Shown: positions 1 to 36,934 of the stretch, piece after piece
Layout: every line of letters starts with the position of its first letter
Numbering within the stretch: position 1 is the first letter of the stretch
From: Spirochaetia bacterium
GTDB lineage: Bacteria; Spirochaetota; Spirochaetia; WTKD01; G963693115
Reading direction: 5' to 3'
NCBI GenBank assembly: GCA_965226065.1
Contig: OZ245332.1
Span: 809,651 to 873,650, forward strand
DNA: 64,000 nt
Position numbers and translations under genes: made by a program
Notes under the pieces: model-generated
What the model saw: only the letters and a program-made list of their open reading frames with translations
Database searches by the model: none
Told to the model about the DNA's origin: nothing

Positions 1-1362
1 TTCTGCAAGTCCGTCTGGTAACTGTTTTTCTTCGATTTTTGAAAAACTATACAGCGCAAGAAATCCGGGAAAACTAAGCGTAGAACCACTTGCCGTAAAC
101 ACATAATTTTGTATGTGAAATTCAACACTTGTCGTTGCTTTTACCGCGTGTGCCATTTGCGAGGCTATAGTTCTTTCCCATATCAATTTGTACAAGTGCG
201 CCTCACGCCCTGTTAATCCCGTATTAGCAGGCGCTACGAATTGTGTTCCTGTAGGACGAATAGCTTCGTGCGCTTCTTGTGCATTTTTACTTTTAGAAGA
301 AAAAATTCTCGGTTTTTCCGGGAGATATGCTGCATCAAAATGCGTGCTAATATATTCGCGAGACGCTTGTATTGCCTGCGCTGAGAGCATCGGTGAATCT
401 GTTCTCATATACGTTATAAAACCCTGTTCATATATTGTTTGTGCCACACGCATAGTCTCACGTGCAGAAAGGTGTAGTTTTCTATTTGCCTCTTGCTGCA
501 GCGTCGATGTGGTAAACGGTATAGGTGGTAAAACTTTTTGTGGATTTTTCTCTACTGAGCTAATGGTAAAAGCTTTTCCTTTTGTAGCATGTACGACTTT
601 TTCTGCCAATGCATGTGAAAGGTGCACTGCATTTTGTTTTGTAAGTACTCCAGTGTTATCAAAATCAGATCCTATCGCTATGCGTTGCCCTTCAATAGAA
701 ATGAGTTTTGCATTAAATTTTATATCAGAGTGCTCAAATAAAACACCGACACTGCTATAACGCACTTTCTTAAATATATACCGCTCACGTTCGCGCTCAA
801 CTAAAAGCCGCAAACCGGGTGACTGTACGCGTCCTGAAGAAAGCTTGTACGTTATTTTTTTCCACAACAAGCCTGAAACCTCATATCCAAATAACCTATC
901 AAGTATTCGCCGCGTCTCTTGTGCCTTTACTAAGTTATTATCAATATCTCGAAACGACTCAAGTGCCTGCAAAATAGCATCTTTAGTAATTTCATGAAAT
1001 ACCATGCGCTTTACAGGAATTGATGGTTTCACAAGCTGCGTGATGTGATATGCTATGCTTTCTCCTTCTCTGTCTTCGTCTGTGGCGAGAATAAGCGAAT
1101 CTGCAGTTTTCACTTTCTTTTTCATCTCATTTATCACTTTTCCTTTACCCTTGATAGTGATATACAACGGTGTAAAGTCATTTTCAACATCTATGCCCAA
1201 TCGAGACCATGGCAATACTTTGTATTTTTCTGGAATATCAGAAGCATTTTGTGGCAAATCTCGTACGTGTCCTATACTTGCAATAATTTCATATTCTTTT
1301 GGAAGAAACTTTGCGACTGTTTTCGCTTTTGTAGGCGACTCTACTATAACAATGTGACTCAT
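1..1362 (-). CDS. topA: DNA topoisomerase I, N-terminal part; 3' end lies outside the window
   Basis: Minus-strand reading from ATG (reverse complement of 1360-1362) gives MSHIVIVESPTKAKTVAKFLPKEYEIIASIGHVRDLP..., a Toprim start. Further in it gives ...LILATDEDREGESIAYHIT, the acidic Toprim motif. It is absent from the ORF track because its stop is outside the window. The plus-strand ORFs 188-760 and 1045-1377 are antisense artefacts. Confidence 0.8.
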   Translation of the reverse strand, partial: MSHIVIVESPTKAKTVAKFLPKEYEIIASIGHVRDLPQNASDIPEKYKVLPWSRLGIDVENDFTPLYITIKGKGKVINEMKKKVKTADSLILATDEDREGESIAYHITQLVKPSIPVKRMVFHEITKDAILQALESFRDIDNNLVKAQETRRILDRLFGYEVSGLLWKKITYKLSSGRVQSPGLRLLVERERERYIFKKVRYSSVGVLFEHSDIKFNAKLISIEGQRIAIGSDFDNTGVLTKQNAVHLSHALAEKVVHATKGKAFTISSVEKNPQKVLPPIPFTTSTLQQEANRKLHLSARETMRVAQTIYEQGFITYMRTDSPMLSAQAIQASREYISTHFDAAYLPEKPRIFSSKSKNAQEAHEAIRPTGTQFVAPANTGLTGREAHLYKLIWERTIASQMAHAVKATTSVEFHIQNYVFTASGSTLSFPGFLALYSFSKIEEKQLPDGLAE

Positions 1363-1556
1363 ACGCTTATTTTATAAAGTTATGCCTTAGCTTGTATAGG
1401 AATTATAAAATAATACACAATGAAATTTTCTTAATCTTTAAAGTTCTCATCAATTTGTATTGTATTTATAAAATTTCACATATGCATTGGCAAGTTTTTC
1501 GTAATATGAAGTTTTTTTCTTGACATTATTAGTCTCGGCTAACTATTATAAAAGCT

Positions 1557-2579
1557 ATGAAAAATTTTATATGGAAAATCGTAATAGTAGTGATCTTACT
1601 TTCTCTAAGTGTGAATATTTCGTATTCTTCTGGGTCAAATGCATCTGATAAAGAAAATATATCGTCCGATGGAAAGTTAAAAGAACTGACTTTGTATACT
1701 CCACCTGCAGGTGTTGGTGTCTTAATGGTAGATGTAGTAAACTCTCAAGCACTAAATAAATACGTCGAGAAACTAAACGTAGTTCGTTGGAACAATCCTG
1801 ACCAATTACGTGCAGGTATTATAAATGGTTCTATGAATATTACATTTTTGCCAAGCTATGTCGGAGCAAAGCTATATAACAAAGGCATTACATTCCAGCT
1901 TTTGAATATCGTAACAGGTGGGTTACTCTACGTAATTAGCCGCGATCCTTCTCTTAAAACCATTGATGATCTAAGAGGTAAGCGCATCGTTGTACCTTTT
2001 AAAAACGATATGCCTGACTTAGTATTGCGTTCTTTACTGACAAAAATAAGTATAAAGACAAGTAAGGATATTACCATTGAATACGTCGCTACTCCAGAAA
2101 TAGCGGCGAAAATGGCAATTGCAGGCAAGGCAGATACCGTGTTGTTACCAGAAGTAGCAGCAACCAAAGTTACACTTATGTCGAAAAAGGAACAAAACAT
2201 CCCGTTTCAATATGCCATTGATATTCAAAAAGAATGGGGTCGTCTTATGCAAACGAAAAACTATATACCGCAAGCAGGTGTTGCCGTCCGAAAATCTTTT
2301 GCCGAAAAAAATCCTAAACTTGTAAAAGCGTTACATAAAGCTTTACAAGAAGCTTCTACAAGACTCATGAAAAATGAAAAACACCTGAAAGCAATGGTGG
2401 AAAAACTATGGCCAAATCAAGGTGTGATTTTTACAAAATCTATTGGAAAATGGAACATGAATGTTCAAAGTAGCGTTGTAATAAGATCTGATTTAGAACA
2501 TTTTTTTAAAACCTTGAAAGCACTAAACCCATCTATCATTGGAGGTAAACTTCCCAACGATGGATTTTACTATCAATAA
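1557..2579 (+). CDS. ABC transporter periplasmic substrate-binding protein (NitT/TauT, NMT1/THI5-like family)
   Basis: N-terminal signal peptide MKNFIWKIVIVVILLSLSVNISYSS. Size is about 340 aa. It is followed by a permease and an ATPase of the same transporter class. Confidence 0.6.
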   Translation: MKNFIWKIVIVVILLSLSVNISYSSGSNASDKENISSDGKLKELTLYTPPAGVGVLMVDVVNSQALNKYVEKLNVVRWNNPDQLRAGIINGSMNITFLPSYVGAKLYNKGITFQLLNIVTGGLLYVISRDPSLKTIDDLRGKRIVVPFKNDMPDLVLRSLLTKISIKTSKDITIEYVATPEIAAKMAIAGKADTVLLPEVAATKVTLMSKKEQNIPFQYAIDIQKEWGRLMQTKNYIPQAGVAVRKSFAEKNPKLVKALHKALQEASTRLMKNEKHLKAMVEKLWPNQGVIFTKSIGKWNMNVQSSVVIRSDLEHFFKTLKALNPSIIGGKLPNDGFYYQ

Positions 2580-2628
2580 ACTGATGAATGTAGTGTAGCT
2601 TTCAAAAAATTCTGCAAAGGATACAATT

Positions 2629-3375
2629 GTGTACTCTCGTAAATATGCGGGAAAAGTTTTAGGAATTATTCTCCTTCTTAGTTTGTGGTCTTTAGGTAGT
2701 ACCCGTTATTCCAATTTAGTACTTCCATCGCCCTTAGAAACTCTACAGCGATTGTATGAAATTTTTTTTATGGAAAGCGGCTTGAAACAACTAGGCATTA
2801 CCATTGTGCGTGCTTTAGTGGGATTTGTGCTTTCTATAATAGGAGCTATGACATGTGGCATTATCGCAGGTATTGTACCCTTCTTACGTTACATGCTCTA
2901 TCCACTTGAACGTATTATGATTTCTGTACCACCCATAGCGTGGGTAGTTTTGACTATTTTGTGGTTTGGGGGTACAGGTATTGGTAGTGCTGTACTTACA
3001 ATTTTTATAGCATCTTTTTCTGTAATTTACATTTCTACTATACAGGGCGTAAAAACATTGGACACGCGTCTTCTAGACATGGGGCGCAGCTTTGGTATGT
3101 CGCATACAAAATCTGTATTAAAAATCGGCTTCATTCACATATTGTCGGTGACCTTCCCTGCCATAAGAGTGGCTTTTGGGCAAAGCTGGAAAGTAGGTGT
3201 CATGGCAGAAGTGCTCGGAGCTTCAAACGGCATAGGTGCAAAAATCGCCACAGCCCGCGCTCACTTAGAAACACCTGATGTCTTCGCATGGATAGCGGTC
3301 GCAGTTATTTTGTTTATAACAACTGATGAGTTATTCATTGCTCCAATAAATAAGTACACCATGAAATGGAGATGA
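2629..3375 (+). CDS. ABC transporter permease (binding-protein-dependent inner-membrane component, SsuC/TauC-like)
   Basis: Polytopic hydrophobic 248-aa protein lying between the SBP and ATPase genes. Confidence 0.65.
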   Translation: MYSRKYAGKVLGIILLLSLWSLGSTRYSNLVLPSPLETLQRLYEIFFMESGLKQLGITIVRALVGFVLSIIGAMTCGIIAGIVPFLRYMLYPLERIMISVPPIAWVVLTILWFGGTGIGSAVLTIFIASFSVIYISTIQGVKTLDTRLLDMGRSFGMSHTKSVLKIGFIHILSVTFPAIRVAFGQSWKVGVMAEVLGASNGIGAKIATARAHLETPDVFAWIAVAVILFITTDELFIAPINKYTMKWR

Positions 3376-3386
3376 GGATTTAACAC

Positions 3387-5099
3387 ATGATAGAGTGTAA
3401 AAACATTCATTTTTCTTATGGAAGTAATCGCGAGAAAATATTCTCAGAGCTTAATTTCTGTATTGAAACTGGGCAATTTGTTACCTTTATGGGATGCTCA
3501 GGATGTGGAAAAACCACTTTGCTTAACATTATGAATGGACTACTATCTCCTTATAAAGGACAAATAACAAACCTTGCAAAATCCTCTGTTACTCTTTTTC
3601 AAGATACACGTTTGATACCGTGGATGACCATTAGCAATAATGTGAAATTTGGAGCGCGAGAAAAAAACATTCTCATTTCAGATGAAGATGTGAACGAAAT
3701 GCTGCAAAGTGTTGGCATACCTACTCATATCAAAGACGCATACCCTAAAATTTTAAGTGGAGGCATGGAGCAAAGGGTGGCGTTTGCCCGAGCCTTGGCA
3801 TGTCAACCAGACATGCTTTTTATGGATGAACCTTTTTCTGCACTCGACATGATAACAAGAAAAGACTTAGCATATCGCGTCGCATGCTATGTCCAAGAAA
3901 AAAAGGCAACTGCTATTTTCGTGACACACGATGTAACAGAAGCTTGCTTTTTATCAGATATACTGTACGAAATGCGCGGTGTACCTGCAAAAATTAAAAA
4001 ATTAACAAGTATTTCAAAACCTACGCTACAAAGGAATGAGACTATGATACAAACTATTGTAAATACGGTGATGCACAAAAAACGCCAAAAAAATTCGGTA
4101 GAATTTGAACGAATGGCAACATGTAAAATGGGAGAAAATTTAGAAAAATTTATACAGTTCATGGAAGCGCGTATGTGGCGCATTATCCATGTGAAACAAA
4201 AAAGATGCCCATCTATAAAAAAAATACCCGATTGTATTGTTATAGATGGAAAACATCCCGATGCTCAAAAACTTATACGCATATACGAAAAGGAGCATAC
4301 GCGTTTTTTGTATCTTAATACAACACCAAAAGACATAAAAGTTTCTCGTATACCGTGTGAATTTGATGCGATAAAAAATTGGTGGGGCTGGGAAAACCTC
4401 TATGCCGATTTAATTGAAGGTGCGACTAAAAGCCGAGTACGACACATAACTATTGGACATAACTGGTCTTATGTCGAAACAGATAAAGGCGCAGGGCTAG
4501 GACGCACTCCGTGTCGTGGCACAGAAGGAGCGCGCACCATAGCAAACGCAGGTTCACTTGAGGGAAAAACTGTACGTGATTTAGCACAAGGCTTGCTCAG
4601 TGACGATGATCTCTTGCGCTCCCTTGCCATAGCGGCAATACAATGTGTCTATAACACCGCAGATAAGGGACGTACGGGCGAATCTCAATGGGGGTTTTCT
4701 TTGTTCAAGCATAGCGTAGGAAAGAAGGCATGCATTGGCTATTGTCCCTGCTCGCAACACATTATCCCCGATATGAAAATTATAGAAAGAGAACCTAAAG
4801 AAGGACATTATACCGTAGAAGAAGGAGAAACCTTGCTCCGCAGTGTCGATTCTCTTGTAGTGACGGCCCAAACTTTGATGAATGGTTCACTTCCTAGAAT
4901 TTTATTTTTAGCACAAGGTGCAGATATCATGCTCTACGGACCTACCTGTCCTTTATCTTCTGTATGGGATAAATACGGAATTCGTTACGCCTGTGGAGTA
5001 CGAGTTACAAATAAAACTGCCATGCGTCAATTTGTTTCTCAAGCAGGCACCATGTTAATGCAAGATAAAATGGCAGAAAAAATTACAATGGAGTTTTAA
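3387..5099 (+). CDS. ABC transporter ATP-binding protein with an extra ~340-aa C-terminal domain of unknown function
   Basis: Walker A GCSGCGKTT, ABC signature LSGGMEQRVAFARAL and Walker B LFMDEPFSALD lie in the first ~230 aa. The continuous ORF carries on for ~340 aa. That extension is Cys-containing and possibly a DUF4213/DUF364-like Rossmann domain, but this cannot be confirmed without an HMM search. Confidence 0.6.
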   Translation: MIECKNIHFSYGSNREKIFSELNFCIETGQFVTFMGCSGCGKTTLLNIMNGLLSPYKGQITNLAKSSVTLFQDTRLIPWMTISNNVKFGAREKNILISDEDVNEMLQSVGIPTHIKDAYPKILSGGMEQRVAFARALACQPDMLFMDEPFSALDMITRKDLAYRVACYVQEKKATAIFVTHDVTEACFLSDILYEMRGVPAKIKKLTSISKPTLQRNETMIQTIVNTVMHKKRQKNSVEFERMATCKMGENLEKFIQFMEARMWRIIHVKQKRCPSIKKIPDCIVIDGKHPDAQKLIRIYEKEHTRFLYLNTTPKDIKVSRIPCEFDAIKNWWGWENLYADLIEGATKSRVRHITIGHNWSYVETDKGAGLGRTPCRGTEGARTIANAGSLEGKTVRDLAQGLLSDDDLLRSLAIAAIQCVYNTADKGRTGESQWGFSLFKHSVGKKACIGYCPCSQHIIPDMKIIEREPKEGHYTVEEGETLLRSVDSLVVTAQTLMNGSLPRILFLAQGADIMLYGPTCPLSSVWDKYGIRYACGVRVTNKTAMRQFVSQAGTMLMQDKMAEKITMEF

Positions 5100-5118
5100 A
5101 TATGAGAGTGTTTCTTCT

Positions 5119-5424
5119 ATGCATGTAGCGAGAATTTTACCTAAAAACGCTAGTGTATACAAAACTGTAGGACCATGGAAAGGTGAGGTAATTCCCCATG
5201 AATTATTCTCACGGCACAATATTGATACAGGTTTCTGGGGAGAATTACACATCCTCTCTGGGAGCGTCCAATATATTTCGTACGACAGTGCAGAAAAGTT
5301 TCTTTTAGGCGCAGGCGATACTCACATCATCATTTCTCAAGAGTGGCATTATCTATCTGTGCCTGAGGGTTTTCAAAAATCGAACTTAGAAATACGCATT
5401 ACTTTTTACAAGGTATTTCCATAG
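5119..5424 (+). CDS. small hypothetical protein, 101 aa (possibly cupin/DUF1971-like)
   Basis: Clean ORF directly downstream of the ABC ATPase. No recognisable catalytic motif. Confidence 0.3.
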   Translation: MHVARILPKNASVYKTVGPWKGEVIPHELFSRHNIDTGFWGELHILSGSVQYISYDSAEKFLLGAGDTHIIISQEWHYLSVPEGFQKSNLEIRITFYKVFP

Positions 5425-5650
5425 TCTCATTCCTTTGAGGTTATTATTTACCAGCATGATAGCTTGCGTATCAATCTGTTTTTCACATCAGATTGATGGA
5501 GCAAAGAATACCTAGCGTTTTCTAGAACGCTTTCATCACCTCTCTATGTTTGGTATTCCTTAAGATGTTTTATACTTACATTAAGAGGTATTGTTACTCC
5601 ATTTTTTTAACTTACTTTTGGCACAGCATAAACAATACAGAAAAAAGATT

Positions 5651-6757
5651 ATGAATGTAAAATATCATTACAGTAAATTTCCACCAAAAATTGATGAAGA
5701 TAAACAATTAACATCACTAATATGTGAAGCGAGAACAGAGCTTGGAAAATATGAGGGGTTTTTATCTTCTATGGAAAATAACAAAGTCTTATTATCTCCT
5801 TTATTTACTCAAGAAGCTGTCTTGTCTTCAAGAATAGAAGGTACTCAATCAACCTTAACAGAAGTATTAGAATTTGAAGCTCATGAAGGAAAACAAAAAA
5901 TTTCAGAAGAAAAAAAAGAAGATATAAAAGAAATAGTAAACTATCGTCATGCTATGAAAAGAGCAGAAAAATTATTAGAAAAAAAACCATTACATCAGAA
6001 AATTTTATTAGAGGCACACAAAGCGCTCATGCAAGGGGTAAAAGGGAAAAATGAATCACCGGGACAATATAGAAAGATTCCCGTTTGGATTGGTCCTGAT
6101 AAAACCAATATAAAAAATGCTCGTTTTATACCTATAGAAGCACAACACATTTCAGATGCAATGTCTAACTTTGAAAAATATATTCATAACAATGAAGATT
6201 ATGATGATTTGATAAAGATAGCTATCTTACACGCAGAATTTGAAGCAATACATCCCTTCTTAGACGGAAATGGAAGGGTAGGAAGGCTCTTTATACCTTT
6301 GTATTTATGGTATAAAAAACTTCTTAGTAGTCCATCTTTTTATATAAGTACCTATTTTGAAAAAAATAAAGATACTTACTACGATTTGTTGCTAAATATT
6401 TCAAAGAAAAACGACTGGAAAACTTGGATTATATTTTTTGCGCAAGGTATAGTTGAGCAATCAAAAGATAACTTTACGAGAGCAAAAAAGATTGTAGATT
6501 TTTATAAAGAATTAAAAAGCAAAATCCCTACAATGAGCAAGTCTCCTTATGGAATTACCGCTTTAGATTTTATATTTCAAAATACCTATTTTAATACCGC
6601 TTCTTTTTATCAAGAATCAGGTGTTCCCAAAGCAATAGCAAAAAGACTTCTTAGTACTTTTGAAAAAGAGGATCTTTTACTTTGCATAAAAGGTCAAGGA
6701 AGAACCCCCAATTTTTATGTCTTTAAAAAACTTATTGATATTGCTGACGGAAAATAA
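5651..6757 (+). CDS. Fic family protein (Fido domain, likely AMPylator or toxin)
   Basis: Canonical Fic motif HPFLDGNGRVGRLF. Probable start is the internal ATG (MNVKYHY...) at 5651 rather than the track start at 5591. The gene is AT-rich relative to its neighbours. Confidence 0.8.
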   Translation: MNVKYHYSKFPPKIDEDKQLTSLICEARTELGKYEGFLSSMENNKVLLSPLFTQEAVLSSRIEGTQSTLTEVLEFEAHEGKQKISEEKKEDIKEIVNYRHAMKRAEKLLEKKPLHQKILLEAHKALMQGVKGKNESPGQYRKIPVWIGPDKTNIKNARFIPIEAQHISDAMSNFEKYIHNNEDYDDLIKIAILHAEFEAIHPFLDGNGRVGRLFIPLYLWYKKLLSSPSFYISTYFEKNKDTYYDLLLNISKKNDWKTWIIFFAQGIVEQSKDNFTRAKKIVDFYKELKSKIPTMSKSPYGITALDFIFQNTYFNTASFYQESGVPKAIAKRLLSTFEKEDLLLCIKGQGRTPNFYVFKKLIDIADGK

Positions 6758-6767
6758 CTAGTAGTCC

Positions 6768-7440
6768 ACTTTCGCACCACAAATAGTTTTGTAGCCCACT
6801 TTTGCACCACAAATAGTTTTGTAGCCCACTTTTGCACCACAAATAGTTTTGTAGCCCACTTTTGCACCACAAATAATTTTGTAGCCCACTTTCGCACCAC
6901 AAATAGTTTTGTAGCCCACTTTTGCACCACAAATAATTTTGTAGCCCACTTTCGCACCACAAATAATTTTGTAGCCCACTTTCGCACCACAAATAGTTTT
7001 GTAGCCCACTTTTGTACCACAAATAGTTTTGTAGCCCACTTTCGCACCACAAATAATTTTGTAGCCCACTTTTGCACCACAAATAATTTTGTAGCCCACT
7101 TTCGCACCACAAATAGTTTTGTAGCCCACTCTTGCACCACAAATAGTTTTGTAGCCCACTTTTGCACCACAAATAGTTTTGTAGCCCACTTTTGCACCAC
7201 AAATAGTTTTGTAGCCCACTTTTGCACCACAAATAATTTTGTAGCCCACTTTCGCACCACAAATAGTTTTGTAGCCCACTTTTGCACCACAAATAATTTT
7301 GTAGCCCACTTTCGCACCACAAATAGTTTTGTAGCCCACTTTTGCACCACAAATAGTTTTGTAACCCACTTTTGCACCACAAATAGTTTTGTAACCCACT
7401 TTTGCACCACAAATAGTTTTGTAGCCCACTTTTGTACTTA
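6768..7440. repeat. Tandem array of ~22 copies of a 30-bp unit (CCCACTTTTGCACCACAAATAGTTTTGTAG) with point variants
   Basis: The direct repeat is read straight from the sequence. Variants are TTTCGC/TTTTGC, ATAGTTT/ATAATTT and GTAGCCC/GTAACCC. Units abut with no unique spacers. Each unit contains a short inverted repeat, ACAAA-tagt-TTTGT. Confidence 0.9.
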
Positions 7441-7612
7441 CTCAACGTGAATGTTTCCCTAAGTTATTTATGAACTTTTATGTCTTTATATATTTTTCTA
7501 AATATATTACAAATTATTATCTCAAAAGATTATCAAATTATCACAAAATTAATTGATGTTAATTTTTATATATAGTAAAATTAAAGAAATTACAAAAAAT
7601 AAAGAGGTTTCC

Positions 7613-8323
7613 ATGTATTTATTTGAATTTATCGGTACTGCCGTTTTAGTGCTTTTAGGTTGTGGTGCAATTGCTAACAATCATTTACCAAAAACAGGGG
7701 GAAATAATACCGGTACTATGTTTATTAACACAGGCTGGGGCTTTGCAGTGTTTGTCGCAGTACTTATGACTGGCTGGAAAAGCGGTGCTCATATTAACCC
7801 TGCAGTTACTATTGCTGTTGCCGTCCGTGGTAGTTTCGATTGGAACTTAGTACCATTCTACATTCTTGCACAGTGTGCAGGTGCTTTCTTTGGTGCCTTT
7901 ATAGTGTGGTGTGCATATAAAAAGCACTACGACGAATCCGAGGACTCTGCAAAAATTTTAGGTACGTTTTCAACTGGTGCTAGTATTTGTAATGGTTTTT
8001 GGAACATTGTTACAGAAATCATCGCTACATTTGTGTTAGTCCTTGGTATTATATTATTTGGAGTAACAGAAAATGCCATGCCTCCATGGGCAGCTGCACT
8101 TACGGTAGGTTTTTTGGTATGGGCAATTGGCATATCTTTAGGTGGACCTACGGGCTATGCAATTAACCCCGCGCGCGACTTAGGACCACGCATGTTTCAC
8201 GCAGTAGCGTTCATTCCTAATAAAGGCAGTTCTAACTGGAAATATGGCTTAACTGTCCCCATCATTGGTCCAATTATTGGCGGAATTTTAGCAGCAATAA
8301 CAAGCACCGCACTAGGTGTGTAG
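7613..8323 (+). CDS. glpF: Glycerol uptake facilitator / aquaglyceroporin (MIP family)
   Basis: Two NPA boxes (HINPAVT and AINPARD) and six TM segments. Start taken at MYLFEFIGTAVLV (7613). Confidence 0.85.
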   Translation: MYLFEFIGTAVLVLLGCGAIANNHLPKTGGNNTGTMFINTGWGFAVFVAVLMTGWKSGAHINPAVTIAVAVRGSFDWNLVPFYILAQCAGAFFGAFIVWCAYKKHYDESEDSAKILGTFSTGASICNGFWNIVTEIIATFVLVLGIILFGVTENAMPPWAAALTVGFLVWAIGISLGGPTGYAINPARDLGPRMFHAVAFIPNKGSSNWKYGLTVPIIGPIIGGILAAITSTALGV

Positions 8324-8610
8324 CACTGAGTATAAGAGTAAGTAGTAAAACTATTACATACTTCCTCCAAGCGTTTAGTAATCCTCTTACTTTTATTCAC
8401 ACCTTTGAAGAGTAAGAGGATACAAAATATCCCTTGTGCGTATTTCAGAATATCAATAATCCGCGCCTTTAAGGAAGTGTGTTTCACTTCTAAGATATAA
8501 AAAACACCTATTGATACAGATTGTTTTAGTTGAGCACACGGGTGATGAATGCTAAAAAAGCACATGGATTATAATTATCGTTTCTCTATAGATTAGAGGC
8601 TATTGCGCGT

Positions 8611-10743
8611 ATGTTAAAATATAGTATGGATAGTGTATTTCCTCGCTTTATACATTGCATAGGGATAAAAGGAAGTGGACTCGCTGCATTTGCAGTACTA
8701 CTAAAGCAATCCCACCATCACGTAAGTGGTTCAGATAAATCTGATGTATTTTACACTGATGCAGTCTTGCAAAATGCAGGTATTACATGGAACACAGGGT
8801 TTTATCCACAAAATATTCCGAAAGAAACAGAACTTGTCATATATTCCGCAGCATACACGCAAGAAAACAATGAAGAACTTGCCTATGCACAGAAAAATGC
8901 TATTCCTTGCCTTTCATACCCTGAAGCACTGGGTATGTTTTCATGTAATAAACCATCTTGGGCTGTTATAGGCACGCATGGAAAAACAACAACGACAGGG
9001 TTTATCGGCATTTTGTGCAAATCCCAAAACATTTCCGCGTCAGTACTAACCGGAAGTTCACTTCCAGATTTTGAAAACAATGCTGTATTGTATAAAGGTG
9101 ATGATGTGTTTTTTGCAGAAGTATGCGAATATAAAAATCACTTTACACATTTTTCACCAAAGGCTGCGGTGTTCACCAGTGCAGAGTGGGATCATCCTGA
9201 TTACTTTCGCTCGGCAGATGATGTGTATCAACACTTTGCATCATTTCTAAACAAATTACCACAAAATGCACCATTGATAGCATGCGCAGACGATGAAGGA
9301 GTACAAAAAGTCTTACATCAGGCAAGACTAAAACTAGCTTCTCAACAAATGTATTTATACACCCGTGCATCATCACATATTTCGAAAACACTTCAAAACT
9401 TTGACGCACACATTATCCGTATTCACGAGCAAGATTTTACTACTTATGAAGGTAAAAAAGTACAATCATTTACCATAGAAGGATTAAACTCTGACGCGAA
9501 TGCAAACATATGGTATTTGCCCATGCCTTCCGTAGTCTTAATATATAATGCCACCGCTGCAATCATAAGCGTTGTGACATATATGAAAAGTCGTGGCCTT
9601 ACGATAAACTGGCATGCTATGCAAAAAGCATTAGCGCAATGCAAGGGTATTTCTAGACGAAGCGAGGTATTATATCATGATGCCTGCTATACCATTATGG
9701 ATGATTATGCACACCATCCCACAGCCATAAAAAAAACACTTGCAGGCATCGTTGCATTTTATCAACCTAAACGCTTGAGAGTAAATTTTATGCCTCACAC
9801 TCATACAAGAACTGAAAAATTATGGAACGACTTTCTTTCTTGTTTTACCGATGCAGATGAAGTTATCATAAACGATGTGTACGCTTCTGTCAGAGAAGGA
9901 AATATCAGAGAAAAAGATATTAAAGAAAGTACGGAAGAAACAAAAAATAATAATACATCACACACTGCAAAGAATCTCGCACACGCAATAGCAGCAAAAA
10001 ATAGCAAGCTGCACATTCAGTACATGTCAACCGTAGAGCAGACGATACCATACATACGCTCATCCTTACAATGCGGAGATTTATTTCTAAGCATGGGTGC
10101 AGGAGATAATTTTCGCATATCGCATGCAATAGCACAGGAAATAAACCACAAACACAAAATATCCATAGCACGTAGCCCTCTATGCATTGCTATATCTGGA
10201 AAAAGTGGCTGTGGGAACACTTCTATTAGTTCTATGCTTGCAAAGAAACTTTCAATTATGCTTATCAATTATACGTTTCGTTCTGTAGCAAAAGAAAAAA
10301 ACATGTCGTTTGAAGATGTATGTAAAAAGGCTAAAAATGATCCGTGGTGGGATAAATACGTCGATGAAAAACAACGCGCATTGTCAAAAGAACAATCATG
10401 CGTTGTCGGATCGCGTCTTGCAATATGGTTTTTAGAACATGCAAATATCAAAATATATTTACATGCTGATGATCGTGTTCGCGCACACAATATACAACAA
10501 CGCGAAGGCGGTTCATTTGAACAATCTTTAAAAGAAACGACAAAAAGAGATCTAAGCGATGCCGAACGCTACAAAAACTTATACAATATAGACATTTCAG
10601 ACTATAAAAAAGCATGCGACGTTATTGTCGAAACACAAAACAAAGACAAAAATACCATAGTAGAAGAAATACTTCAACATTTATTACAACGAGGATTAAT
10701 CAAAATTTTGAAAAATACATCTCCTTGTAAGTGTAGTAGATAA
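8611..10743 (+). CDS. Mur ligase family protein (MurC/Mpl-like) fused to a C-terminal cytidylate-kinase-like P-loop domain
   Basis: N-terminal Mur ligase catalytic region with the ATP site AVIGTHGKTTTTGFIG and a MurC-like N-terminus IGIKGSGLAAFAVLL. The last ~200 aa carry a second P-loop, ISGKSGCGNTSISSMLAKKL, typical of CMP kinase. Confidence 0.6.
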   Translation: MLKYSMDSVFPRFIHCIGIKGSGLAAFAVLLKQSHHHVSGSDKSDVFYTDAVLQNAGITWNTGFYPQNIPKETELVIYSAAYTQENNEELAYAQKNAIPCLSYPEALGMFSCNKPSWAVIGTHGKTTTTGFIGILCKSQNISASVLTGSSLPDFENNAVLYKGDDVFFAEVCEYKNHFTHFSPKAAVFTSAEWDHPDYFRSADDVYQHFASFLNKLPQNAPLIACADDEGVQKVLHQARLKLASQQMYLYTRASSHISKTLQNFDAHIIRIHEQDFTTYEGKKVQSFTIEGLNSDANANIWYLPMPSVVLIYNATAAIISVVTYMKSRGLTINWHAMQKALAQCKGISRRSEVLYHDACYTIMDDYAHHPTAIKKTLAGIVAFYQPKRLRVNFMPHTHTRTEKLWNDFLSCFTDADEVIINDVYASVREGNIREKDIKESTEETKNNNTSHTAKNLAHAIAAKNSKLHIQYMSTVEQTIPYIRSSLQCGDLFLSMGAGDNFRISHAIAQEINHKHKISIARSPLCIAISGKSGCGNTSISSMLAKKLSIMLINYTFRSVAKEKNMSFEDVCKKAKNDPWWDKYVDEKQRALSKEQSCVVGSRLAIWFLEHANIKIYLHADDRVRAHNIQQREGGSFEQSLKETTKRDLSDAERYKNLYNIDISDYKKACDVIVETQNKDKNTIVEEILQHLLQRGLIKILKNTSPCKCSR

Positions 10744-10748
10744 GTACT

Positions 10749-11747
10749 TTATTCGTCCCAGCTAAGCGTACCACCAACCTGATATTCAGTAACCCGAGTC
10801 TCAAAAAAGTTTTTCTCTTTTGCCAAATCCACAGATTGGCTCATCCATGGAAAAGGGTTTTCTCTGTGATACTGTGCAGGAAGATTGATGCGTTCTAAAC
10901 GTCTATCAGCAATATACTCTACATAATGTGCAAACTGATCTGCATTAATACCAAGTATACCTTCAGGACATGCTTCATACGCGTATTTTTTTTCAAGTTC
11001 AACACCATACTTAATTAAGGTTAATATGTCACTTTGAAATTCATCTGTCCATATTTTAGGATGTTCTTTAACAATGGTGTTAGTAAGATCAGCTCCAAAA
11101 GCTAAATGCAAACTTTCATCACGCATAATGTACTCAAATTGCTCGCCGATACCCACCATCAAATTTTTTCTTTTTAATGCAAGCATCATAGCAAAACCTG
11201 CATAAAAATAAATACCTTCCATAATTATGTAATATCCAATTAAATCATGTACAAACTTTCTTACATTATCTATCCCTTCAGTGGAAAAAGTAGGGTCAGC
11301 TACATTTTTAGTAAGTTCGACAACAAAATCATCTTTTTCTTTTATCGCAGGTACCGTATTATACATGGGGTATATTTCATCGGGATCAAGTCCGAGCGAG
11401 TCACAACAGTAAATAAAACAATCGGTATGTATTGCCTCTTCAAAAGCTTGACGAAGCAGATATTGTCGACACTCTGGATTAGTAACATGGCTGTAAACAG
11501 CGAGTACTATGTTATTTGCAGTAAGCGATTCTGCAGTAGAAAAAAAACCTAAATTCCACAATATAAGACGCCGTTCGGTATCACTTAAAGCATCGATCGA
11601 TTTCCACTGCTCTATATCTTGCTGCATGGGAATTTCTTCAGGAGTCCAGTTATTCGCAACGCCATCTTTATAATGCTCTCGTGCCCAATGATATGTCATA
11701 GGCAATATTTTGTTTGGGTCTGTTTTATTGTTGTTAATAACAGGCAT
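10749..11747 (-). CDS. nrdB: Ribonucleotide reductase class Ia beta subunit
   Basis: Di-iron ligand region MEGIYFYAGF...RDESLHLAFG. Length is 332 aa. It lies directly downstream of nrdA on the same strand. Confidence 0.85.
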   Translation of the reverse strand: MPVINNNKTDPNKILPMTYHWAREHYKDGVANNWTPEEIPMQQDIEQWKSIDALSDTERRLILWNLGFFSTAESLTANNIVLAVYSHVTNPECRQYLLRQAFEEAIHTDCFIYCCDSLGLDPDEIYPMYNTVPAIKEKDDFVVELTKNVADPTFSTEGIDNVRKFVHDLIGYYIIMEGIYFYAGFAMMLALKRKNLMVGIGEQFEYIMRDESLHLAFGADLTNTIVKEHPKIWTDEFQSDILTLIKYGVELEKKYAYEACPEGILGINADQFAHYVEYIADRRLERINLPAQYHRENPFPWMSQSVDLAKEKNFFETRVTEYQVGGTLSWDE

Positions 11748-11788
11748 TATGAATTCTCCTAATTTTATGTATGTAATCTATTGTATAC

Positions 11789-14602
11789 TTATTGGCATGC
11801 TTCACAGTCAGAGCCAAGTTCGCAGGCTTGTCCTACTTCCGTAGCCGGTACTTCTTTGTATTTAATGTTTGCAACAGATGTATCTAAGGTCACCATATCG
11901 TCATTTTGTCTTTTTTTATACTCGCGTTTTTGTGTAAATCCATATTCTTTAGCATTTAAGGTTGACTTTTCTATTTGAGATGCGCCAAGTGAACGTAAAT
12001 AATACGTCGTTTTCAAGCCCATGTTCCACGCTGCAAAATAAATGTCATGAAGTTTCTTACCTGAAACGCCCTTCATAAACACATTGTGTGATTGGCTTTG
12101 ATCTATCCACTTTGCACGTACAGCAGTAAGCCGCACGAGTACTATGGGATCAATTTCAAAAGTTTCTTTATACAAGGACTTGATATCATCGCCAATCTCT
12201 TCTATGTAGTCTATGTTTCCATCGTAATATTTAATACGCTCTAGCATCTTCCTTGACCATAGACCCTGTGCTTTTAAATCTTGCACCAAGTACTTATTGA
12301 TAATCGTAAATTCTCCACTCATGTTAGATTTCACGTATATGTTTTTATAAATTGGTTCTATGCATGGAAAACAACCTGCTACATTAGAAATAGTAGCGGT
12401 GGGAGCTATTGCCATAGTGTTGCTATTACGCATGCCGTGTTCTTGTATAGACTGTCGCACCGGATCCCAGTTCAAGCGCATTTTTCTATTCACCTCTATC
12501 TTTCGTCCACGCTCTTTCTCAAGCAAATCTACCGTATCAAGAGGTAATATGCCTCTATCCCATTTTGAATTTGGAAAAGACTGATATTTACCACGTTCCT
12601 TCGCCAACTCTGAAGAAGCTAAAATAGCATGATACGATATAAACTCCATAGTAGTATCCACAAATTCTGTAGTTCTTGCATCAGCAAAAGGAAATCGTAA
12701 AATAAATAAGGCATCTTGCAAGCCCATAAGTCCAAGCCCTACCGGGCGATGCTTAAAGTTGCTTTCCTTTGCTTCTTTTGTGGGATAGAAATTAATATCA
12801 ATAACATTGTCTAACATGCGCATAGCGGTTTTTATTGTTTGCGACAATAAATACTGATTTAGTCCATCTTCCGTAACATGACGTGCTATGTTAATAGAAC
12901 CAAGGTTACATACTGCTATTTCATCAATATTGTTATTAAGTGTTATTTCCGTACAAAGGTTGCTACTATGTACAACACCTATGTGGTCTTGTGGACTTCG
13001 TATGTTACACGGATCTTTGAATGTCATCCACGGATGTCCTGTTTCAAATAAACGCGTTATCATCTTACGCCATAGCTTTAGTGCTTCAACTTTCTTAAAA
13101 GGATGAATACTTCCCTCATCTGCCATTCGCTCATATTCTTCGTATCGTTTTTCAAATGCACTACCGTACAAGTCATGAAGGTCAGGCACTTGGTCAGGTG
13201 AAAAAAGCGTCCAATTTTTCCCATCATTGACGCGCTTCATAAACAAATCAGGTATCCAGTTCGCCGTATTCATATCATGCGTGCGGCGTCTGTCATCGCC
13301 TGTATTGCGGCGTAAATCCAAAAAGTCTTCTATATCTAGATGCCATGTCTCTAAATAAGCACAGGTAGCACCTCTGCGTTTCCCACTACGGTTAATAGCG
13401 AGTGTCGTATCATTCGCTATTTTCAAAAATGGAATAACGCCCTGACTTTCGACATTGGTACTTTTAATAAGCGCATTCGTAGCTCGTACTGGTGTCCAGT
13501 CGTTACCTATACCACCTGACCATTTTGCCATCTGTGCGTTATCACCGATGCATTTAAAAATATTCTGCAAGTCGTCCGAAATAGTACTGATATAACACGA
13601 GCTTAGTTGCGGATGTACAAGAGCAGAATGAAAAAGCGTAGGAGTTGAAGGAATATAACGAAACGATGATATAAGATCATAAAACTCTTTTGCGCATGCA
13701 TTCTTATCTTTTTCTCTTACAGCAAGTCCCATTGAAACACGCATCCAAAAAGCTTGAGGCGTTTCTATGATTTGTCCCTTATGTTTAATAAAGTACCTAT
13801 CGCACAAGGTACGTAATCCTATAAATGAAAACTCATCATCGCGTGTACAATCTAAATACTTAGCTAATTCTTCAAGATTAAAAGAATTCAATTCATCCGT
13901 AAAAATATTTTCTTGCATTCCAAACTTTAAAGATTTTACAAAGGTTTCCTTATATTTTTTTGTAAGCTCTTCTGAGCTTTTAACACTTTCTGTAATAACT
14001 TCTTTATAGAGCTTTTGACGTAATAATCTTGTAGAAATTTTTTCATAATCGGGGTCTCTTTCCAAAAATGAAATAGTAGACAAGATCATCGCTTCTTCTA
14101 TTTCTTTTGTTTGTATTCCATTAAAAATATTTTTTTCAAGCTCTGTGATAATAGGACCTAAAGGAACCGATTGGGTATTGATATCACTACTCGCGCGTCG
14201 AAGATTGACAAGCATCTTTCCTTGATTAAACGCCACAACATCTCCATTGCGTTTTGTAACTTCAAGGGTATTTATTTTCTTTTGCGTAGCTAAAATGCGC
14301 GAAAGTCTCTCTTCCGCACGTTTTTGCCTGTAAATAATATAACGTTTCGCAATGTGCGGATAGGCGCTTTTCATAAGCACCTGCTCTACCGTATCTTGTA
14401 TTCGCTCTATATGGACAAAATCGCGAGCATTATCGCTTAGTTTCGCTTCAATTTGCTCTATGAAACCTTGTAATTCTTCTTCGGAAATAATCTGATTAGC
14501 AGAATCAAACGCCTTTTTTATAGCGATACTAATTCTTTGTGCATTATATGGGACTTTCTCACCCATTCGTTTTATAACAGTTGTAAGTTCAACTCTGAGC
14601 AA
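11789..14602 (-). CDS. nrdA: Ribonucleotide reductase class Ia alpha subunit with N-terminal ATP-cone
   Basis: 937 aa. ATP-cone N-terminus. C-terminal Cys pair ...SDCEACQ. Overall RNR large-subunit architecture. Confidence 0.9.
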   Translation of the reverse strand: MLRVELTTVIKRMGEKVPYNAQRISIAIKKAFDSANQIISEEELQGFIEQIEAKLSDNARDFVHIERIQDTVEQVLMKSAYPHIAKRYIIYRQKRAEERLSRILATQKKINTLEVTKRNGDVVAFNQGKMLVNLRRASSDINTQSVPLGPIITELEKNIFNGIQTKEIEEAMILSTISFLERDPDYEKISTRLLRQKLYKEVITESVKSSEELTKKYKETFVKSLKFGMQENIFTDELNSFNLEELAKYLDCTRDDEFSFIGLRTLCDRYFIKHKGQIIETPQAFWMRVSMGLAVREKDKNACAKEFYDLISSFRYIPSTPTLFHSALVHPQLSSCYISTISDDLQNIFKCIGDNAQMAKWSGGIGNDWTPVRATNALIKSTNVESQGVIPFLKIANDTTLAINRSGKRRGATCAYLETWHLDIEDFLDLRRNTGDDRRRTHDMNTANWIPDLFMKRVNDGKNWTLFSPDQVPDLHDLYGSAFEKRYEEYERMADEGSIHPFKKVEALKLWRKMITRLFETGHPWMTFKDPCNIRSPQDHIGVVHSSNLCTEITLNNNIDEIAVCNLGSINIARHVTEDGLNQYLLSQTIKTAMRMLDNVIDINFYPTKEAKESNFKHRPVGLGLMGLQDALFILRFPFADARTTEFVDTTMEFISYHAILASSELAKERGKYQSFPNSKWDRGILPLDTVDLLEKERGRKIEVNRKMRLNWDPVRQSIQEHGMRNSNTMAIAPTATISNVAGCFPCIEPIYKNIYVKSNMSGEFTIINKYLVQDLKAQGLWSRKMLERIKYYDGNIDYIEEIGDDIKSLYKETFEIDPIVLVRLTAVRAKWIDQSQSHNVFMKGVSGKKLHDIYFAAWNMGLKTTYYLRSLGASQIEKSTLNAKEYGFTQKREYKKRQNDDMVTLDTSVANIKYKEVPATEVGQACELGSDCEACQ

Positions 14603-25644: not shown

Positions 25645-27006
25645 ATGAAGAAACTATATACAACAATACTAATTATTGCCTTAGCTTTGTTCATTTCATG
25701 CGATGAAAAGAAAGCAAAAGATGAAATTACAAAGGCACTTGATAAAGCGGTGGACGCGGTAGATAAGACAACACCGAAACTAACTAAACCCGTACTAAAT
25801 GCTACCCGTGTGAGAGTAGGAACAGCGGCTACATTCCCTAAAGTAGCAGGGTATACCTACACCTTAAAAGAGAAAAAAAGAGGAGTCAGAATAAGCGAAG
25901 GTACAAGTAACACAATGCAAGTCACCGCTACACAAGCAGCTAGCGGTGTTGTTGTAGTTGCGACTAAGGACGGTAATAGCATAGATAGCGAGCCTATAGA
26001 ATTTGTTATTATTGAGTTAACGAAACCCGCAGTAAGTAGCTACCGTGTGAGAACGGTACAAGTGGCTACATTCCCGAAAGTGTTAGGACATACTTATGAA
26101 TTGAAACAAGCTATAAGCGGTGTAAGCCTTGAGGTATCAGATGAGAGCATGGGACGAGTAACCGCTACACAAGCAGCAAGCAATGTAATCATAGTAGCAA
26201 CGCTTGACGGTAACACCGAGGAAAGCGACCCTATAGAATTTGTACTTATTGAGTTAATAAAGCCAGCAGTAAGTAGCAACCGTGTAAAAGTAGGAACACC
26301 GATTATACTTACAAAAGTAGAAGCACATACCTATAAATTGAAAGAAGAGGTAAGCGGCGTAAGTCTTGAGGTATCAGATGAGAGCACGGGAGAACTCACA
26401 GCCACGCAGTCCGCACAAAATGTAATTATAGTAGCCACGCTTGATGGTAATACCGAAGAAAGCGACCCTATAAATTTTATTGAGGTAATAAAACCCGCAG
26501 TAAGCGAAATTTCAGCACCCTGGGATACAGTAATTACATTCCCGAAAGAACCAGAGCATACTTATGAACTGAAAGAAGAAAAAACAGGAGTCACATTAAG
26601 CGAGGCTACCAGTGACACAATGCAAATCACCGCTACACAGTCCGCACAAAATGTAATTATAATTGCAACGGTTGACGGCTTAACTGAAGAAAGCGACCGT
26701 ATTGAGTTTAGAAGAAAGCAGGGTAATGCTTTAAGCTTTGCACAACCAAGACGATCGGAAAAACGAAGAACTACTTTTACGCAAACCGCTAGTAAAAGCG
26801 GAGCAGTTGCAGGAGATACCCGAGACATAACATATAGCGTATATCCTAGTGTTTTCGGTGTTAGTGTTGATAGCAGTAGCGGAGAAGTTGCAGTAAATTT
26901 TATTGCCGACTATAGACGGTATACTATTACCGCACAACTTCCAAGAACCGCAAAGTACGAAAGAAGCACCGCAACATATACACTTGTAGTCCCGAGATCG
27001 AAATAA
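25645..27006 (+). CDS. Surface lipoprotein paralogue with four tandem ~78-aa Ig-like repeats plus conserved C-terminal domain
   Basis: MKKLYTTILIIALALFISC. Repeats KPAVSS.RV..G....TKV..HTY.LK....GVSLEVSDES.G..TATQ.A.NVIIVATLDGNTEESDPIEF occur four times. C-terminal YTITAQLP..AKYERSTATYTLVV. Confidence 0.75.
   Translation: MKKLYTTILIIALALFISCDEKKAKDEITKALDKAVDAVDKTTPKLTKPVLNATRVRVGTAATFPKVAGYTYTLKEKKRGVRISEGTSNTMQVTATQAASGVVVVATKDGNSIDSEPIEFVIIELTKPAVSSYRVRTVQVATFPKVLGHTYELKQAISGVSLEVSDESMGRVTATQAASNVIIVATLDGNTEESDPIEFVLIELIKPAVSSNRVKVGTPIILTKVEAHTYKLKEEVSGVSLEVSDESTGELTATQSAQNVIIVATLDGNTEESDPINFIEVIKPAVSEISAPWDTVITFPKEPEHTYELKEEKTGVTLSEATSDTMQITATQSAQNVIIIATVDGLTEESDRIEFRRKQGNALSFAQPRRSEKRRTTFTQTASKSGAVAGDTRDITYSVYPSVFGVSVDSSSGEVAVNFIADYRRYTITAQLPRTAKYERSTATYTLVVPRSK
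25780..26725 (+). repeat. Intragenic tandem repeats (~234 bp x4) encoding Ig-like modules
   Basis: Seen as repeated peptide blocks in the 453-aa product and as repeated antisense ORF fragments. Confidence 0.7.
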
Positions 27007-34592: not shown

Positions 34593-36934
34593 TTAATTGT
34601 ATTTTCTTATGCGATAACAAAGACCCTTTTTCCAATTCCCGTCTCTATGTGTCCCAGTTGCACTGCAGTGATATTCATGCAGTTTTACTGTTATTTTATA
34701 AGATGCTGTACTTTCCGTATACTTCTCATTTTGTTCTTTTTTCGCAGTAATTGTTTCTGTTTTTGATCCTCTAAAAATTATAAGTCGATCCATATCAATT
34801 CTAGAAGATGATGCTGTGTATATAATTCTTCTTTTGTCGCCGGGGATATCTCTGCTTACACGCACCTTTTGAAGCCTTGCTCGTCCAAAAGCGTTTCTGA
34901 TTTTCCCAAACTTTGGCACATTAACTGTTAGCATAAAAGGTCCTGTTTTTGTAAAGAAAAGCGTATCGCCCGTTTGCCTCGTAAACGTTATCGGGACACT
35001 GTCTATGACAGCTTCTTCGTATTTCGAATCTCCAGGTAGTATCGCTTGTACAATTACATTTTCAGCAAACTGATTAGCGGTAATTTTTCCATTGCCTAGT
35101 GTCACTCCAGTATGACGGTTTTTCAATTTATACCTATGCAGCGGTGCAGGGGTAAATGTAATAGCTGTTCCCCACGGCACACTCGTTTTACTGAATATAG
35201 GCTTTGTCGCAGGTCTCGTCTGCTTCGTAAACTCAATCGGGACACTGTCTATGACAGCTTCTTCGTATTTCGAATCTCCAGGTAGTATCGCTTGTACAAT
35301 TATATTTTTAGCAAACTGATTAGCGGTAATTTTTCCATTGCCTAGTGTCACTCCAGTATGACGGTTTTTCAATTTATACCTATGCAACGGTGCAGGGGTA
35401 AATGTAATAGCTGTTCCCCACGGCACACTCGTTCTACTGAATATAGGCTTTGTCGCAGGTCTCGTCTGCTTCGTAAACTCAATCGGGTCGCTTTCTACTT
35501 TCCCACTATATCCCGCACGTCTCACTTCTATCACTACTGCGCTCACAGACTCTGTCGCACTTATTCTCGCAGGGTCACTGCTTGTGTCTAAGCTCACTAC
35601 TCCGCCTTTGCTGTCTTTCAATTCATACGTATAGCCCTCAAGCTTTTCAAAGCTTATATCCGTTCCCCATGGCTCACTTTTACTAGGTCTGAATGTCGGC
35701 TTCACAATATCTCCCGTGTTTGTGCTTGCTTTCACGCGTAATTCATATTCTTCGCGTTCCTCTGCGTATTTATCATCCGCTGCCTTCCTCGCTGTTATCG
35801 TAAATGTATTGCCTACCGCTGCTGCCTCAATGCTCACTTCACCACTACTGCCGTCTATTCTCGCTCCACTGCTACTCGGATTTATGCTGTATCGCACGGG
35901 TGTGTCTTCAGGGTCAGTTTCTGTAATTACATGCGTATATTTGTTTTCATTTGTGTTAAACATGAAATCATGACTTGCACTTTCAAACTTAAATCTATCT
36001 CCCGCTTGCCTCGTAAATGCTATTTCTGCACTTTCTTCTTTTCCCTCATATTCTGTGTGTGTCACTTCTATCACTACTGCACTCACAGACTCTGTCGCAC
36101 TTATTCTCGCAGGGTTATTGCTTATGTCTAAGCTCACTACTCCGCCTTTGCTGTCTTTCAATCTATACTTATGACCTTCAAGCATTCCAAAGGTAATGTC
36201 TGTTCCCCACTGCACACTCGTTTGACTGAATGCTGGCGCTTCTATCGCCTTTGCTGTGGTGCTTCTCCTCTCTACCGTGCTTCTTACTCCTTTGTCTGTC
36301 TCTATGTACAATTCACATATATACTCTTTTCCCGCTTTTAGCGCTAACTCATTCATCTTCATAGAAACTTCTTCTTGTGACGCTTCTTTCTCTTTAGCTA
36401 CCCCTCCTGTCTCATTACACTTCACTTTGTAGCTGTAACGTATCTCTAAGTCTTCGTTCACCTCGTTCTTTTTCCAGCGTAACTCAAGACTTCGTTTGCC
36501 ATCTTTTGTGGGCTGCTTTATTATCTTAAAATCTGTAGGTGGTTCTGGTTGCCCCGTTGTCCCTTCTGCTTTCTCTGACCACGGTCCTGAAAATTCTTCG
36601 TAGATTGCCTGCACCTTAAACCAATACTGTATTCCTTCTTCTAGTTTGCGTATCGTAAACCCTTCTGCTTCCATGAACTTAGGGACTACCTCTCGTTTGT
36701 TAAGAGTCTTGCCGTCTACTATGCCATATGATATTCCATAGGCTGCCACCTTCTCTTCTTTTAGCTTCTTTACATCCCATTTCAGAAATACTGCTTCTTT
36801 TTCAAAGGATGCTTTTATAATTTTTGCTTTTTGTGGAATTACTGTGTATAGTACTTTGTCGGGTTCACAGCTTACTAATGCTATCGTAATGAGTATATAT
36901 ATATATATATATATATAGGTTTCTTATGTGTCAT
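34593..36934 (-). CDS. Variable surface lipoprotein copy C (~780 aa if in frame; phase-OFF at TA tract)
   Basis: ATG at 36934 (MTHKKP...), (TA)12 at 36894-36917, then the signal peptide frame is shifted (offset 41 nt, not divisible by 3). The downstream frame is open to 34593. It carries the FN3-like N-module, Ig-like domains and an internal 83-aa duplication. Confidence 0.6.
34985..35482 (-). repeat. Intragenic ~249-bp direct duplication in copy C
   Basis: TKQTRPATKPIFS(R/K)TSVPWGTAITFTPAPLHRYKLKNRHTGVTLGNGKITANQFA.N.IVQAILPGDSKYEEAVIDSVPI.F occurs twice. The DNA is near-identical. Confidence 0.75.
36894..36917 (-). repeat. (TA)12 tract in copy C
   Basis: Counted on the plus strand between GAG (36891-36893) and GG (36918-36919). 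Confidence 0.9.

Follow-up and report, generated by a model that had tools for sequence, protein, structure and literature searches.

Why should a Fic gene be followed, from its stop codon onward, by more than twenty near-identical 30-bp units? The question arises in the 64-kb stretch of DNA analysed here (the window), where TRF reported one such array between Fic and glpF at 6761-7434 (period 30, 22.5 copies, 95% matches, 0% indels). Counted from the first arm of each unit, the array occupies 6758..7437 on the + strand, as delimited by TRF, a mismatch search and the covariance model R1 described below, and consists of 22 full 30-bp units (6758-7417) and a partial 23rd (7418-7437). Unit 1 is degenerate, and its first base lies directly 3' of the Fic stop TAA (6755-6757). 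The 30-mer, allowing up to three mismatches, gave 22 matches, all within the array (shuffles 0/100); a search for the unit elsewhere had been suggested, and at this threshold it was found nowhere in the rest of the 64-kb window. The ~22 tandem copies between Fic and glpF reported in the first-pass annotation are therefore borne out by TRF and the mismatch search, and so is its view that this is not a CRISPR array, since the units adjoin one another with no spacers; among ten ORFs scanned around the array on both sides (188-14602), none matched a Cas family. The units vary at six positions, as found by comparing them, and not at the three first reported. Two of these polymorphisms are common, T/C at CACTTT[T/C]GC and G/A at ATA[G/A]TT, and their variants combine freely (TG 5, TA 5, CG 5 and CA 2 when exact-unit classes are counted), while the other four each occur in one or two units only. 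The 25-26-nt junction pattern of the window has no exact match in the genome, metagenome and viral contig collections, and the clade-consensus core gave only 3 single matches, none in an array, on viral contigs. The window holds further tandem repeats at 25969-26477 (237 bp x 2.2), 34971-35487 (246 bp x 2.1, 96%) and 37352-37698 (75 bp x 4.6), the last two inside large - strand ORFs (34593-36749 and 37249-40158) that probably encode repeat-domain proteins.

The gene preceding the array (5651..6757, + strand) has the Pfam domains Fic_N and Fic and matches the PADLOC SoFic model PDLC03963 (E=2.8e-109), with residues 5-365 aligned to model positions 9-358 of 361. Its best solved relatives in the PDB are SoFic (E ~1e-33) and EcSofic (E ~1e-28). 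Because it scores 169 bits against an NCBIfam equivalog cut-off of 550 bits, it is to be regarded as a member of the SoFic family and not as an ortholog of SoFic proper. The class II inhibitory motif (S/T)xxxE(G/N) and the catalytic motif HPFxxGNGR read SSRIEG and HPFLDGNGR in this protein, both invariant across a 25-member alignment, and judged by these signatures the protein is a full-length SoFic-type defence AMPylase. The gene is AT-richer than its surroundings (GC 29-31% vs 36-46% in neighbouring genes). Phage protection and AMPylation of EF-Tu are established for the E. coli and Shewanella homologues only (PMC12249575; bioRxiv 10.64898/2026.07.09.737422). SoFic AMPylates EF-Tu in a dimer-dependent manner (bioRxiv 10.64898/2026.07.09.737422), and E. 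coli Sofic is neutralised by AS1, the product of a 47-codon gene immediately downstream; how the toxicity of Sofic is restrained and then released is a question posed in the same study (PMC12249575).

One answer would be that the array is itself a gene for a repeat protein, or what is left of one, whether on the - strand (ORFs 6715-7410, 6732-7445 and 6758-7429) or as an extension of Fic by read-through. All three - strand frames run uninterrupted across the window array, as noted at first pass; the + strand, however, is not uniformly stop-rich as had been thought, the frame in phase with Fic having 0 stops, and no start codon. Across 8 homologous arrays (see below) no reading frame is conserved, stops falling in different frames in different arrays, and in L015 and L096 every unit carries a stop in the frame in phase with Fic. 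Pfam matches on the array translations are low-complexity or below cut-off and indicate no credible family, and conservation across units follows the pattern of a dyad, not that of codons. Nor did the unit prove to be part of a repeat-protein gene family, so the suggestion of a repeat-gene remnant is abandoned; the repeat-protein reading is effectively refuted and we give it almost no credence, and the earlier judgement that coding is unlikely holds, with no open frame shared by the homologous arrays and the Pfam matches artefactual. Gene callers have made hypothetical ORFs out of such arrays (L015:6109-7039, L097:5109-5324 and L014:6132-6362; 205, 107, 71 and 76 aa), and the Fic of L015 has been called as 409 aa, compared with 374 aa from the ATG aligned with other clade members. 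Such calls are artefacts of annotation and will reappear in databases.

Another answer would involve the gene downstream. The glpF gene (7613..8323, + strand, MIP family by Pfam MIP) is a bystander of the Fic module, separated from the array by a unique AT-rich spacer (7438..7612, + strand), identical in the sister strain, that lies outside the repeat and contains a promoter-like site and an RBS for glpF. The promoter-like site is a sigma-70-like sequence at 7553-7581 (+), a consensus match only, and there is no terminator-like site between 6757 and 7613. The proposal that the array modulates divergent promoters of Fic and glpF fails, as both genes are on the + strand and divergent promoters do not exist here. 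A link between array and glpF was also considered and ruled out by the closest GlpF relative (85% identical), in the Spirochaetia MAG locus L001, which has topA upstream and neither Fic nor array. A second sigma-70-like site, on the - strand of the spacer (7544-7516, with an extended -10 TG, likewise a consensus match only), is directed into the array, and antisense transcription from it through the array into the 3' end of Fic is conceivable. About 5 kb from the L001 glpF there is a 66-bp x 29.1 tandem array of a different unit with 100% matches (L001:2974-4895), and these genomes may in general contain tandem arrays that are long and perfect. Two other genes of the window are fusions: a single 710-aa ORF (8611-10743) comprises a complete MurC-type Mur ligase and a cytidylate kinase domain, likewise called as a single 700-aa gene in L104, the sister strain, and the gene at 3387-5099 joins an ABC-transporter ATPase to the domains DUF4213 and DUF364 ('putative heavy-metal chelation') and has a TehB-like DUF1971 gene after it.

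The comparison of Fic relatives in other genomes indicates to which gene the array belongs. Eight distinct loci with Fic proteins 55-78% identical to that of the window were examined (L013, L014, L015, L096, L097, L100, L101 and L188, the L097 locus being identical in L098 and L099). Fic is intact in seven of the eight, and all seven have a ~30-bp tandem array of 2.8-17 copies that begins at or within the stop codon, with the shared core TTTGTG.CTCACTTATGC.ACACAA. Over the whole range of 55-100% Fic identity, and setting the frameshifted L188 aside, a homologous stop-codon array of 2.8-22.5 copies is present in 9/9 distinct loci. The neighbourhoods of these relatives are unrelated to that of the window and are mostly Type I restriction-modification (R-M) operons (hsdM/S/R, RhuM, DUF3800); the window's own copy of Fic and array sits outside any R-M operon. 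Since the array accompanies Fic into unrelated neighbourhoods, it belongs to Fic and not to glpF. In L188, where Fic is frameshifted, the downstream element is cut down to ~1 unit; the split gene (L188:3750-4867, 84 aa with Fic_N and 288 aa with Fic) lies within an hsdM-Fic-hsdS operon. Other peculiarities of these loci include a tRNA-like sequence directly upstream of the Fic and array module, recognised by eye and fitting an island integration site (L015:4870-4970), and two different Fic genes in tandem in L014, each with a separate array. Between hsdM and the first Fic of L014 there is also an 18-bp x 28.6 tandem repeat (L014:3152-3665, 97% matches) inside a 718-aa ORF that has no Pfam match.

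Copy number varies between close relatives. The sister strain L104 has 5.5 copies vs 22.5 in the window; the two share their synteny and the first and last units, and identity in the flanks is 99.3-99.4% over 6.9 and 8.0 kb. Such a difference at a near-identical locus makes the array a true VNTR, as had been conjectured, and it can be used as a strain-typing marker; the L097-type locus has 3.1 copies in all three samples. Units across 8 arrays show a mean identity of 75%, with 14/30 positions invariant, while the Fic proteins of the same loci are 63% identical and the fourfold-degenerate sites of their genes, 43% identical, are saturated. The sequence of the array is under constraint.

More distant relatives of Fic, from 80 metagenome loci and 80 viral-contig loci, reveal what preceded the arrays. 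By TRF, an array follows Fic in only 2/76 metagenome loci with Fic 30-48% identical, and both cases are marginal. Where Fic is 41-48% identical, there is a ~95-nt element composed of three non-identical dyad units that runs from the stop codon onward. Its first unit, U1, contains the last codon and the TGA stop within arm 1 and has a 4-nt centre, the centre of U2 is ~15 nt, and that of U3 is again 4 nt. This element is found in both GC-rich and AT-rich genomes, often with hsdR as the next gene, and L108 has its own 30-nt tandem version. The covariance model R1, trained only on 12 three-unit elements, all from other loci, recovers every tandem array (E <= 5e-4), that of the window included, as well as two untrained loci, and has no match in ~138 loci with Fic below 41% identity. 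In a tally over distinct loci with Fic at least 41% identical, the element is downstream of Fic in 24/28 and on either side in 26/28. The element is older than the tandem arrays, and the window array is an amplified, homogenised form of this conserved dyad element. The dyad element is thus physically tied to one SoFic-type Fic clade in very different genomes, usually within Type I R-M operons.

The element is not confined to the 3' side. Model R1 detects copies on the immediate 5' side of Fic in L022, L024 and L026, which in L024 and L026 reach the start codon, and the upstream copy of L024 scores better in reverse orientation. In L096, both Fic and the neighbouring RhuM gene have a solitary unit upstream, at -48 to -18. 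There, a ~35-nt leader (AATGAGGGA.AATGT.ATAAAAAATAAAAGTTTTAA) and one dyad unit stand ahead of RhuM and of Fic (L096:2440-2520 and 3900-3990), which suggests a common control cassette for two different toxin-like genes. Upstream of the window's own Fic there is no unit-like motif with up to 4 mismatches.

What is then the unit? Comparison of 9 arrays and covariation in the homologous three-unit element define it as an imperfect inverted repeat in which two 11-bp arms flank a 4-nt centre and a 4-nt linker completes the 30 bp. In a representative unit of the window (6788..6817, + strand) these are arm 1 TTTGTAGCCCA (6788-6798), centre CTTT (6799-6802), arm 2 TGCACCACAAA (6803-6813) and linker TAGT (6814-6817). 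In the window strain 8/11 arm pairs are Watson-Crick, and two of the other three are A.C or C.A, that is, G.U on the - strand. In the alignment of three-unit elements, the two arms of the same unit show 26 doubly changed cells vs 16.3 +/- 2.9 in shuffles, and 38 extra pair types vs 29.4, values that 0/500 shuffles reach in either case; the U2 helix is 84% paired. This covariation is confined to the arms of one unit and absent between neighbouring units, from which follows the arm, centre and arm structure given above. The dyad ACAAA-N4-TTTGT first noticed is present in the sequence, yet covariation favours the register TTTGTAGCCCA-CTTT-TGCACCACAAA; the same dyad, read as an operator register CACAAA-N4-TTTGTG across the linker, was tried and rejected, its pairing being at the level of shuffles, with no covariation beyond them.

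Whether the unit acts as DNA or RNA is less easily read from these signals. Arms retain their complementarity while the centre varies from 4 to ~15 nt, and non-pairing mismatches occupy 23% of arm cells. Counts of G.U vs A.C are 29:19 in three-unit elements and 3:7 in tandem units, with no significant excess of G.U. In fold predictions for the window array, z is -0.1, at background, on the sense strand and -6.3 on the antisense strand, and z-scores favour different strands in different loci, so strand-specific RNA structure is not supported. Rfam has no match to the whole window at gathering thresholds, and permissive settings returned only a spurious sub-threshold miRNA family (20.8 vs 100 bits).

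The reading we put first, though with somewhat less than even confidence, is that the units are cognate sites for the C-terminal winged-helix (wHTH) domain, at about residues 280-368, of the adjacent Fic, which would act as a dimer, and that the array is a cis-linked bank of such sites at the end of the gene. The bank could capture or titrate the potentially toxic Fic, block read-through into downstream genes as a roadblock, or both, and replication slippage, by altering copy number (5.5 vs 22.5), would change its capacity. We infer from the sequences that Fic binds the array, that double-stranded DNA is the relevant form, and that binding affects the activity or expression of Fic. The proposal of a protein-binding array made at first pass is the best supported of its suggestions, but Fic's own wHTH is a likelier partner than the partition or nucleoid protein then envisaged.

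There is precedent for DNA binding in this family. Through its wHTH, SoFic binds the 100 bp that precede its own start codon (bioRxiv 10.64898/2026.07.09.737422), and the upstream elements of L022, L024, L026 and L096 occupy this same region, which supports the DNA-binding reading. The CccR dimer binds inverted 10-bp boxes through its wHTH (PMC9755527), and CbFic2 is driven to dimerise by DNA binding, which also switches its enzyme activity (PMC10628234). The SoFic fragment that is best bound, F1, carries ATGTCGAT/ATCGACAT boxes, and the same box recurs in a Salmonella EcSofic-type gene, at -26 and -56, in the promoter position that it has in SoFic. A separate SoFic-type gene in L014 (E=1e-74 to SoFic) has a 40-bp x 5.2 tandem array from its stop codon, with arms GTGTCGAA/TTCGACATG. 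The SoFic box and this array have the 8-mer CATGTCGA in common; since a repeated 7-mer is shared by ~5% of shuffled units, the match is supportive but not decisive. The TGTCGA box of SoFic is not enriched near other Fic subfamilies (0.39 vs 0.40 per kb). Within the window clade, arms reading GTG[GT]CTCA always go with a recognition helix that begins IPKPTAxR(L/I)L, and the three related lineages with GTAGCCCA arms have other residues there (KAIAK, PTITK, RAVAQ), a correspondence compatible with co-evolution of helix and arms, albeit phylogenetically confounded. The sofic genes of Salmonella (L103:2395-2461) and Shewanella have almost the same 35 bp ahead of the start codon (ATGTCGATAAAA..GG.TTTTTTAAAC ATG), and a second dyad family (GTGTATAGATA...TATCTATACAC) lies upstream of SoFic in the weaker-binding fragment F3 (preprint Table S2).

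The lack of strand asymmetry, in G.U and A.C counts as in fold z-scores, also argues for DNA. Other features argue against it. Covariation within units only is what base pairing predicts, either in RNA or in single-stranded DNA; a protein that reads half-sites predicts no covariation between arms, except where template switching preserves arm symmetry through quasi-palindrome correction. For a 3'-end binding site there is no standard regulatory logic, the position of the element always permits co-transcription with Fic, and the window's Fic has no unit-like motif upstream. The covariation within units favours the alternative in which the array forms part of an RNA, either in the 3' UTR of the Fic mRNA or between cistrons of a Type I R-M operon, and folds into a string of hairpins acting as an RNA antidote or regulator, or as an element of mRNA stability or translation. 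As an antidote it would follow the logic of type III toxin-antitoxin systems, in which a labile repeat RNA vanishes once the phage shuts off host transcription. Such a transcript would account for the well-paired U2 helix, for complementarity maintained around centres of different length, for the contact of the element with the stop codon (the TGA even lying inside arm 1 of U1 in the three-unit form), for upstream copies that extend to the start codon and RBS region, and for its location inside operons without a terminator-like site; in addition, the slot directly 3' of sofic in E. coli is that of the antidote AS1 (PMC12249575). On the other hand, the sense strand has no excess of G.U over A.C and in the window is predicted to be unstructured, with the opposite strand preference in other loci, nearly a quarter of arm cells do not pair, the upstream copy of L024 scores better reversed, no Rfam family matches, and Fic is not an RNase, which leaves no obvious route for processing the repeats. 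We regard an RNA role as the main rival, less likely than the site bank but a serious one.

A further possibility is that function resides only in the ancestral one to three units and that the 22 copies are products of slippage tolerated in non-coding DNA. With a range of 2.8-22.5 in the clade and a fourfold difference between 99.4%-identical flanks, copy number is not tightly constrained, the near-identity of units within an array is as predicted by recent expansion and concerted evolution, and all three L097-type samples have the same 3.1 copies. Yet 9/9 loci with Fic 55-100% identical retain at least 2.8 copies despite synonymous saturation of Fic, the unrelated SoFic-type gene of L014 has acquired an independent 5-copy array and L108 a 30-nt tandem version of its own, and it is the locus with a frameshifted Fic that is down to ~1 unit. 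Neutral expansion has, in our opinion, a small chance of being the whole explanation. A more speculative proposal, which we would rate as improbable, goes further: SoFic-type defence in this clade would not be single-gene, the array being a nucleic-acid antidote or sensor for a toxin that is not a nuclease, either a DNA sponge that catches the AMPylase in cis during its synthesis or a repeat RNA antitoxin, and the toxin would be freed when a phage destroys the repeats, competes for them or stops their synthesis, with copy number tuning the threshold.

We found no published description of the dyad element in the literature searched or in Rfam. In catalogues of anti-phage systems SoFic figures as a single gene, and the element is a testable candidate for its missing regulatory partner; it is in line with recent reports of DNA binding by these enzymes and of a switch in their activity upon dimerisation or DNA binding. 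The systems most similar to a site bank are the Fic-wHTH operators of CccR in Yersinia pseudotuberculosis and SoFic in Shewanella oneidensis. Both proteins have the same architecture, a class II Fic with a C-terminal wHTH acting as a dimer, and both have inverted boxes beside their own gene, as is the case here, where the boxes are promoter-proximal in L096, L024, L026 and L022; the ATGTCGA box of the SoFic promoter is, moreover, reused in the SoFic-type array of L014. However, the known operators consist of one or a few upstream boxes, whereas the units described here usually start from the stop codon and number 3-22, as perfect tandem repeats of variable copy number, and the window-clade box TTTGTG.CTCA, a candidate site as read from sequence, differs from the known ones.

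Type III toxin-antitoxin systems (ToxIN, CptIN, TenpIN) resemble the locus in that an anti-phage or abortive-infection toxin lies beside non-coding repeats of ~30-36 nt, on the same strand and in variable copies. Their array, however, is upstream of the toxin with a terminator in between, while here it is downstream, from the stop codon, with no terminator-like site. Their toxin is an endoRNase (of the ToxN/AbiQ, CptN and TenpN families) that cuts the repeats into units, here it is an AMPylase, and their units are pseudoknots, those of the array dyads. Sofic-AS1 of E. coli H397 (PMC12249575) belongs to the same toxin family and has its antidote in the slot directly 3' of sofic, like the array; AS1 is, though, reported to be a 47-aa protein, and the array is non-coding. 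The idea that AS1 could itself be a repeat array was rejected, as the homologous Salmonella locus L103 has in this slot a genuine ORF with an RBS and no tandem repeat. The array is therefore not a homologue of AS1, and only its position is analogous.

REP and BIME sequences, too, are imperfect palindromes (~30-40 nt) that follow stop codons in operons, often clustered and in variable copies. Unlike the unit described here, which is seen only beside Fic, with none in the rest of the 64-kb window or in the three collections scanned, and is conserved with Fic across very different genomes, REPs have hundreds of copies dispersed through the genome and no tie to a gene family. Finally, the circuits of C proteins and C-boxes in R-M systems also combine an HTH protein encoded in an R-M operon with palindromic boxes between genes, and most relatives of the window's Fic sit between hsd genes. 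The regulators in those circuits are small, dedicated proteins belonging to type II systems, whereas here the HTH is fused to an AMPylase and the systems are of type I; by analogy with them, the boxes at the end of Fic could serve to time or limit the expression of the restriction genes downstream.
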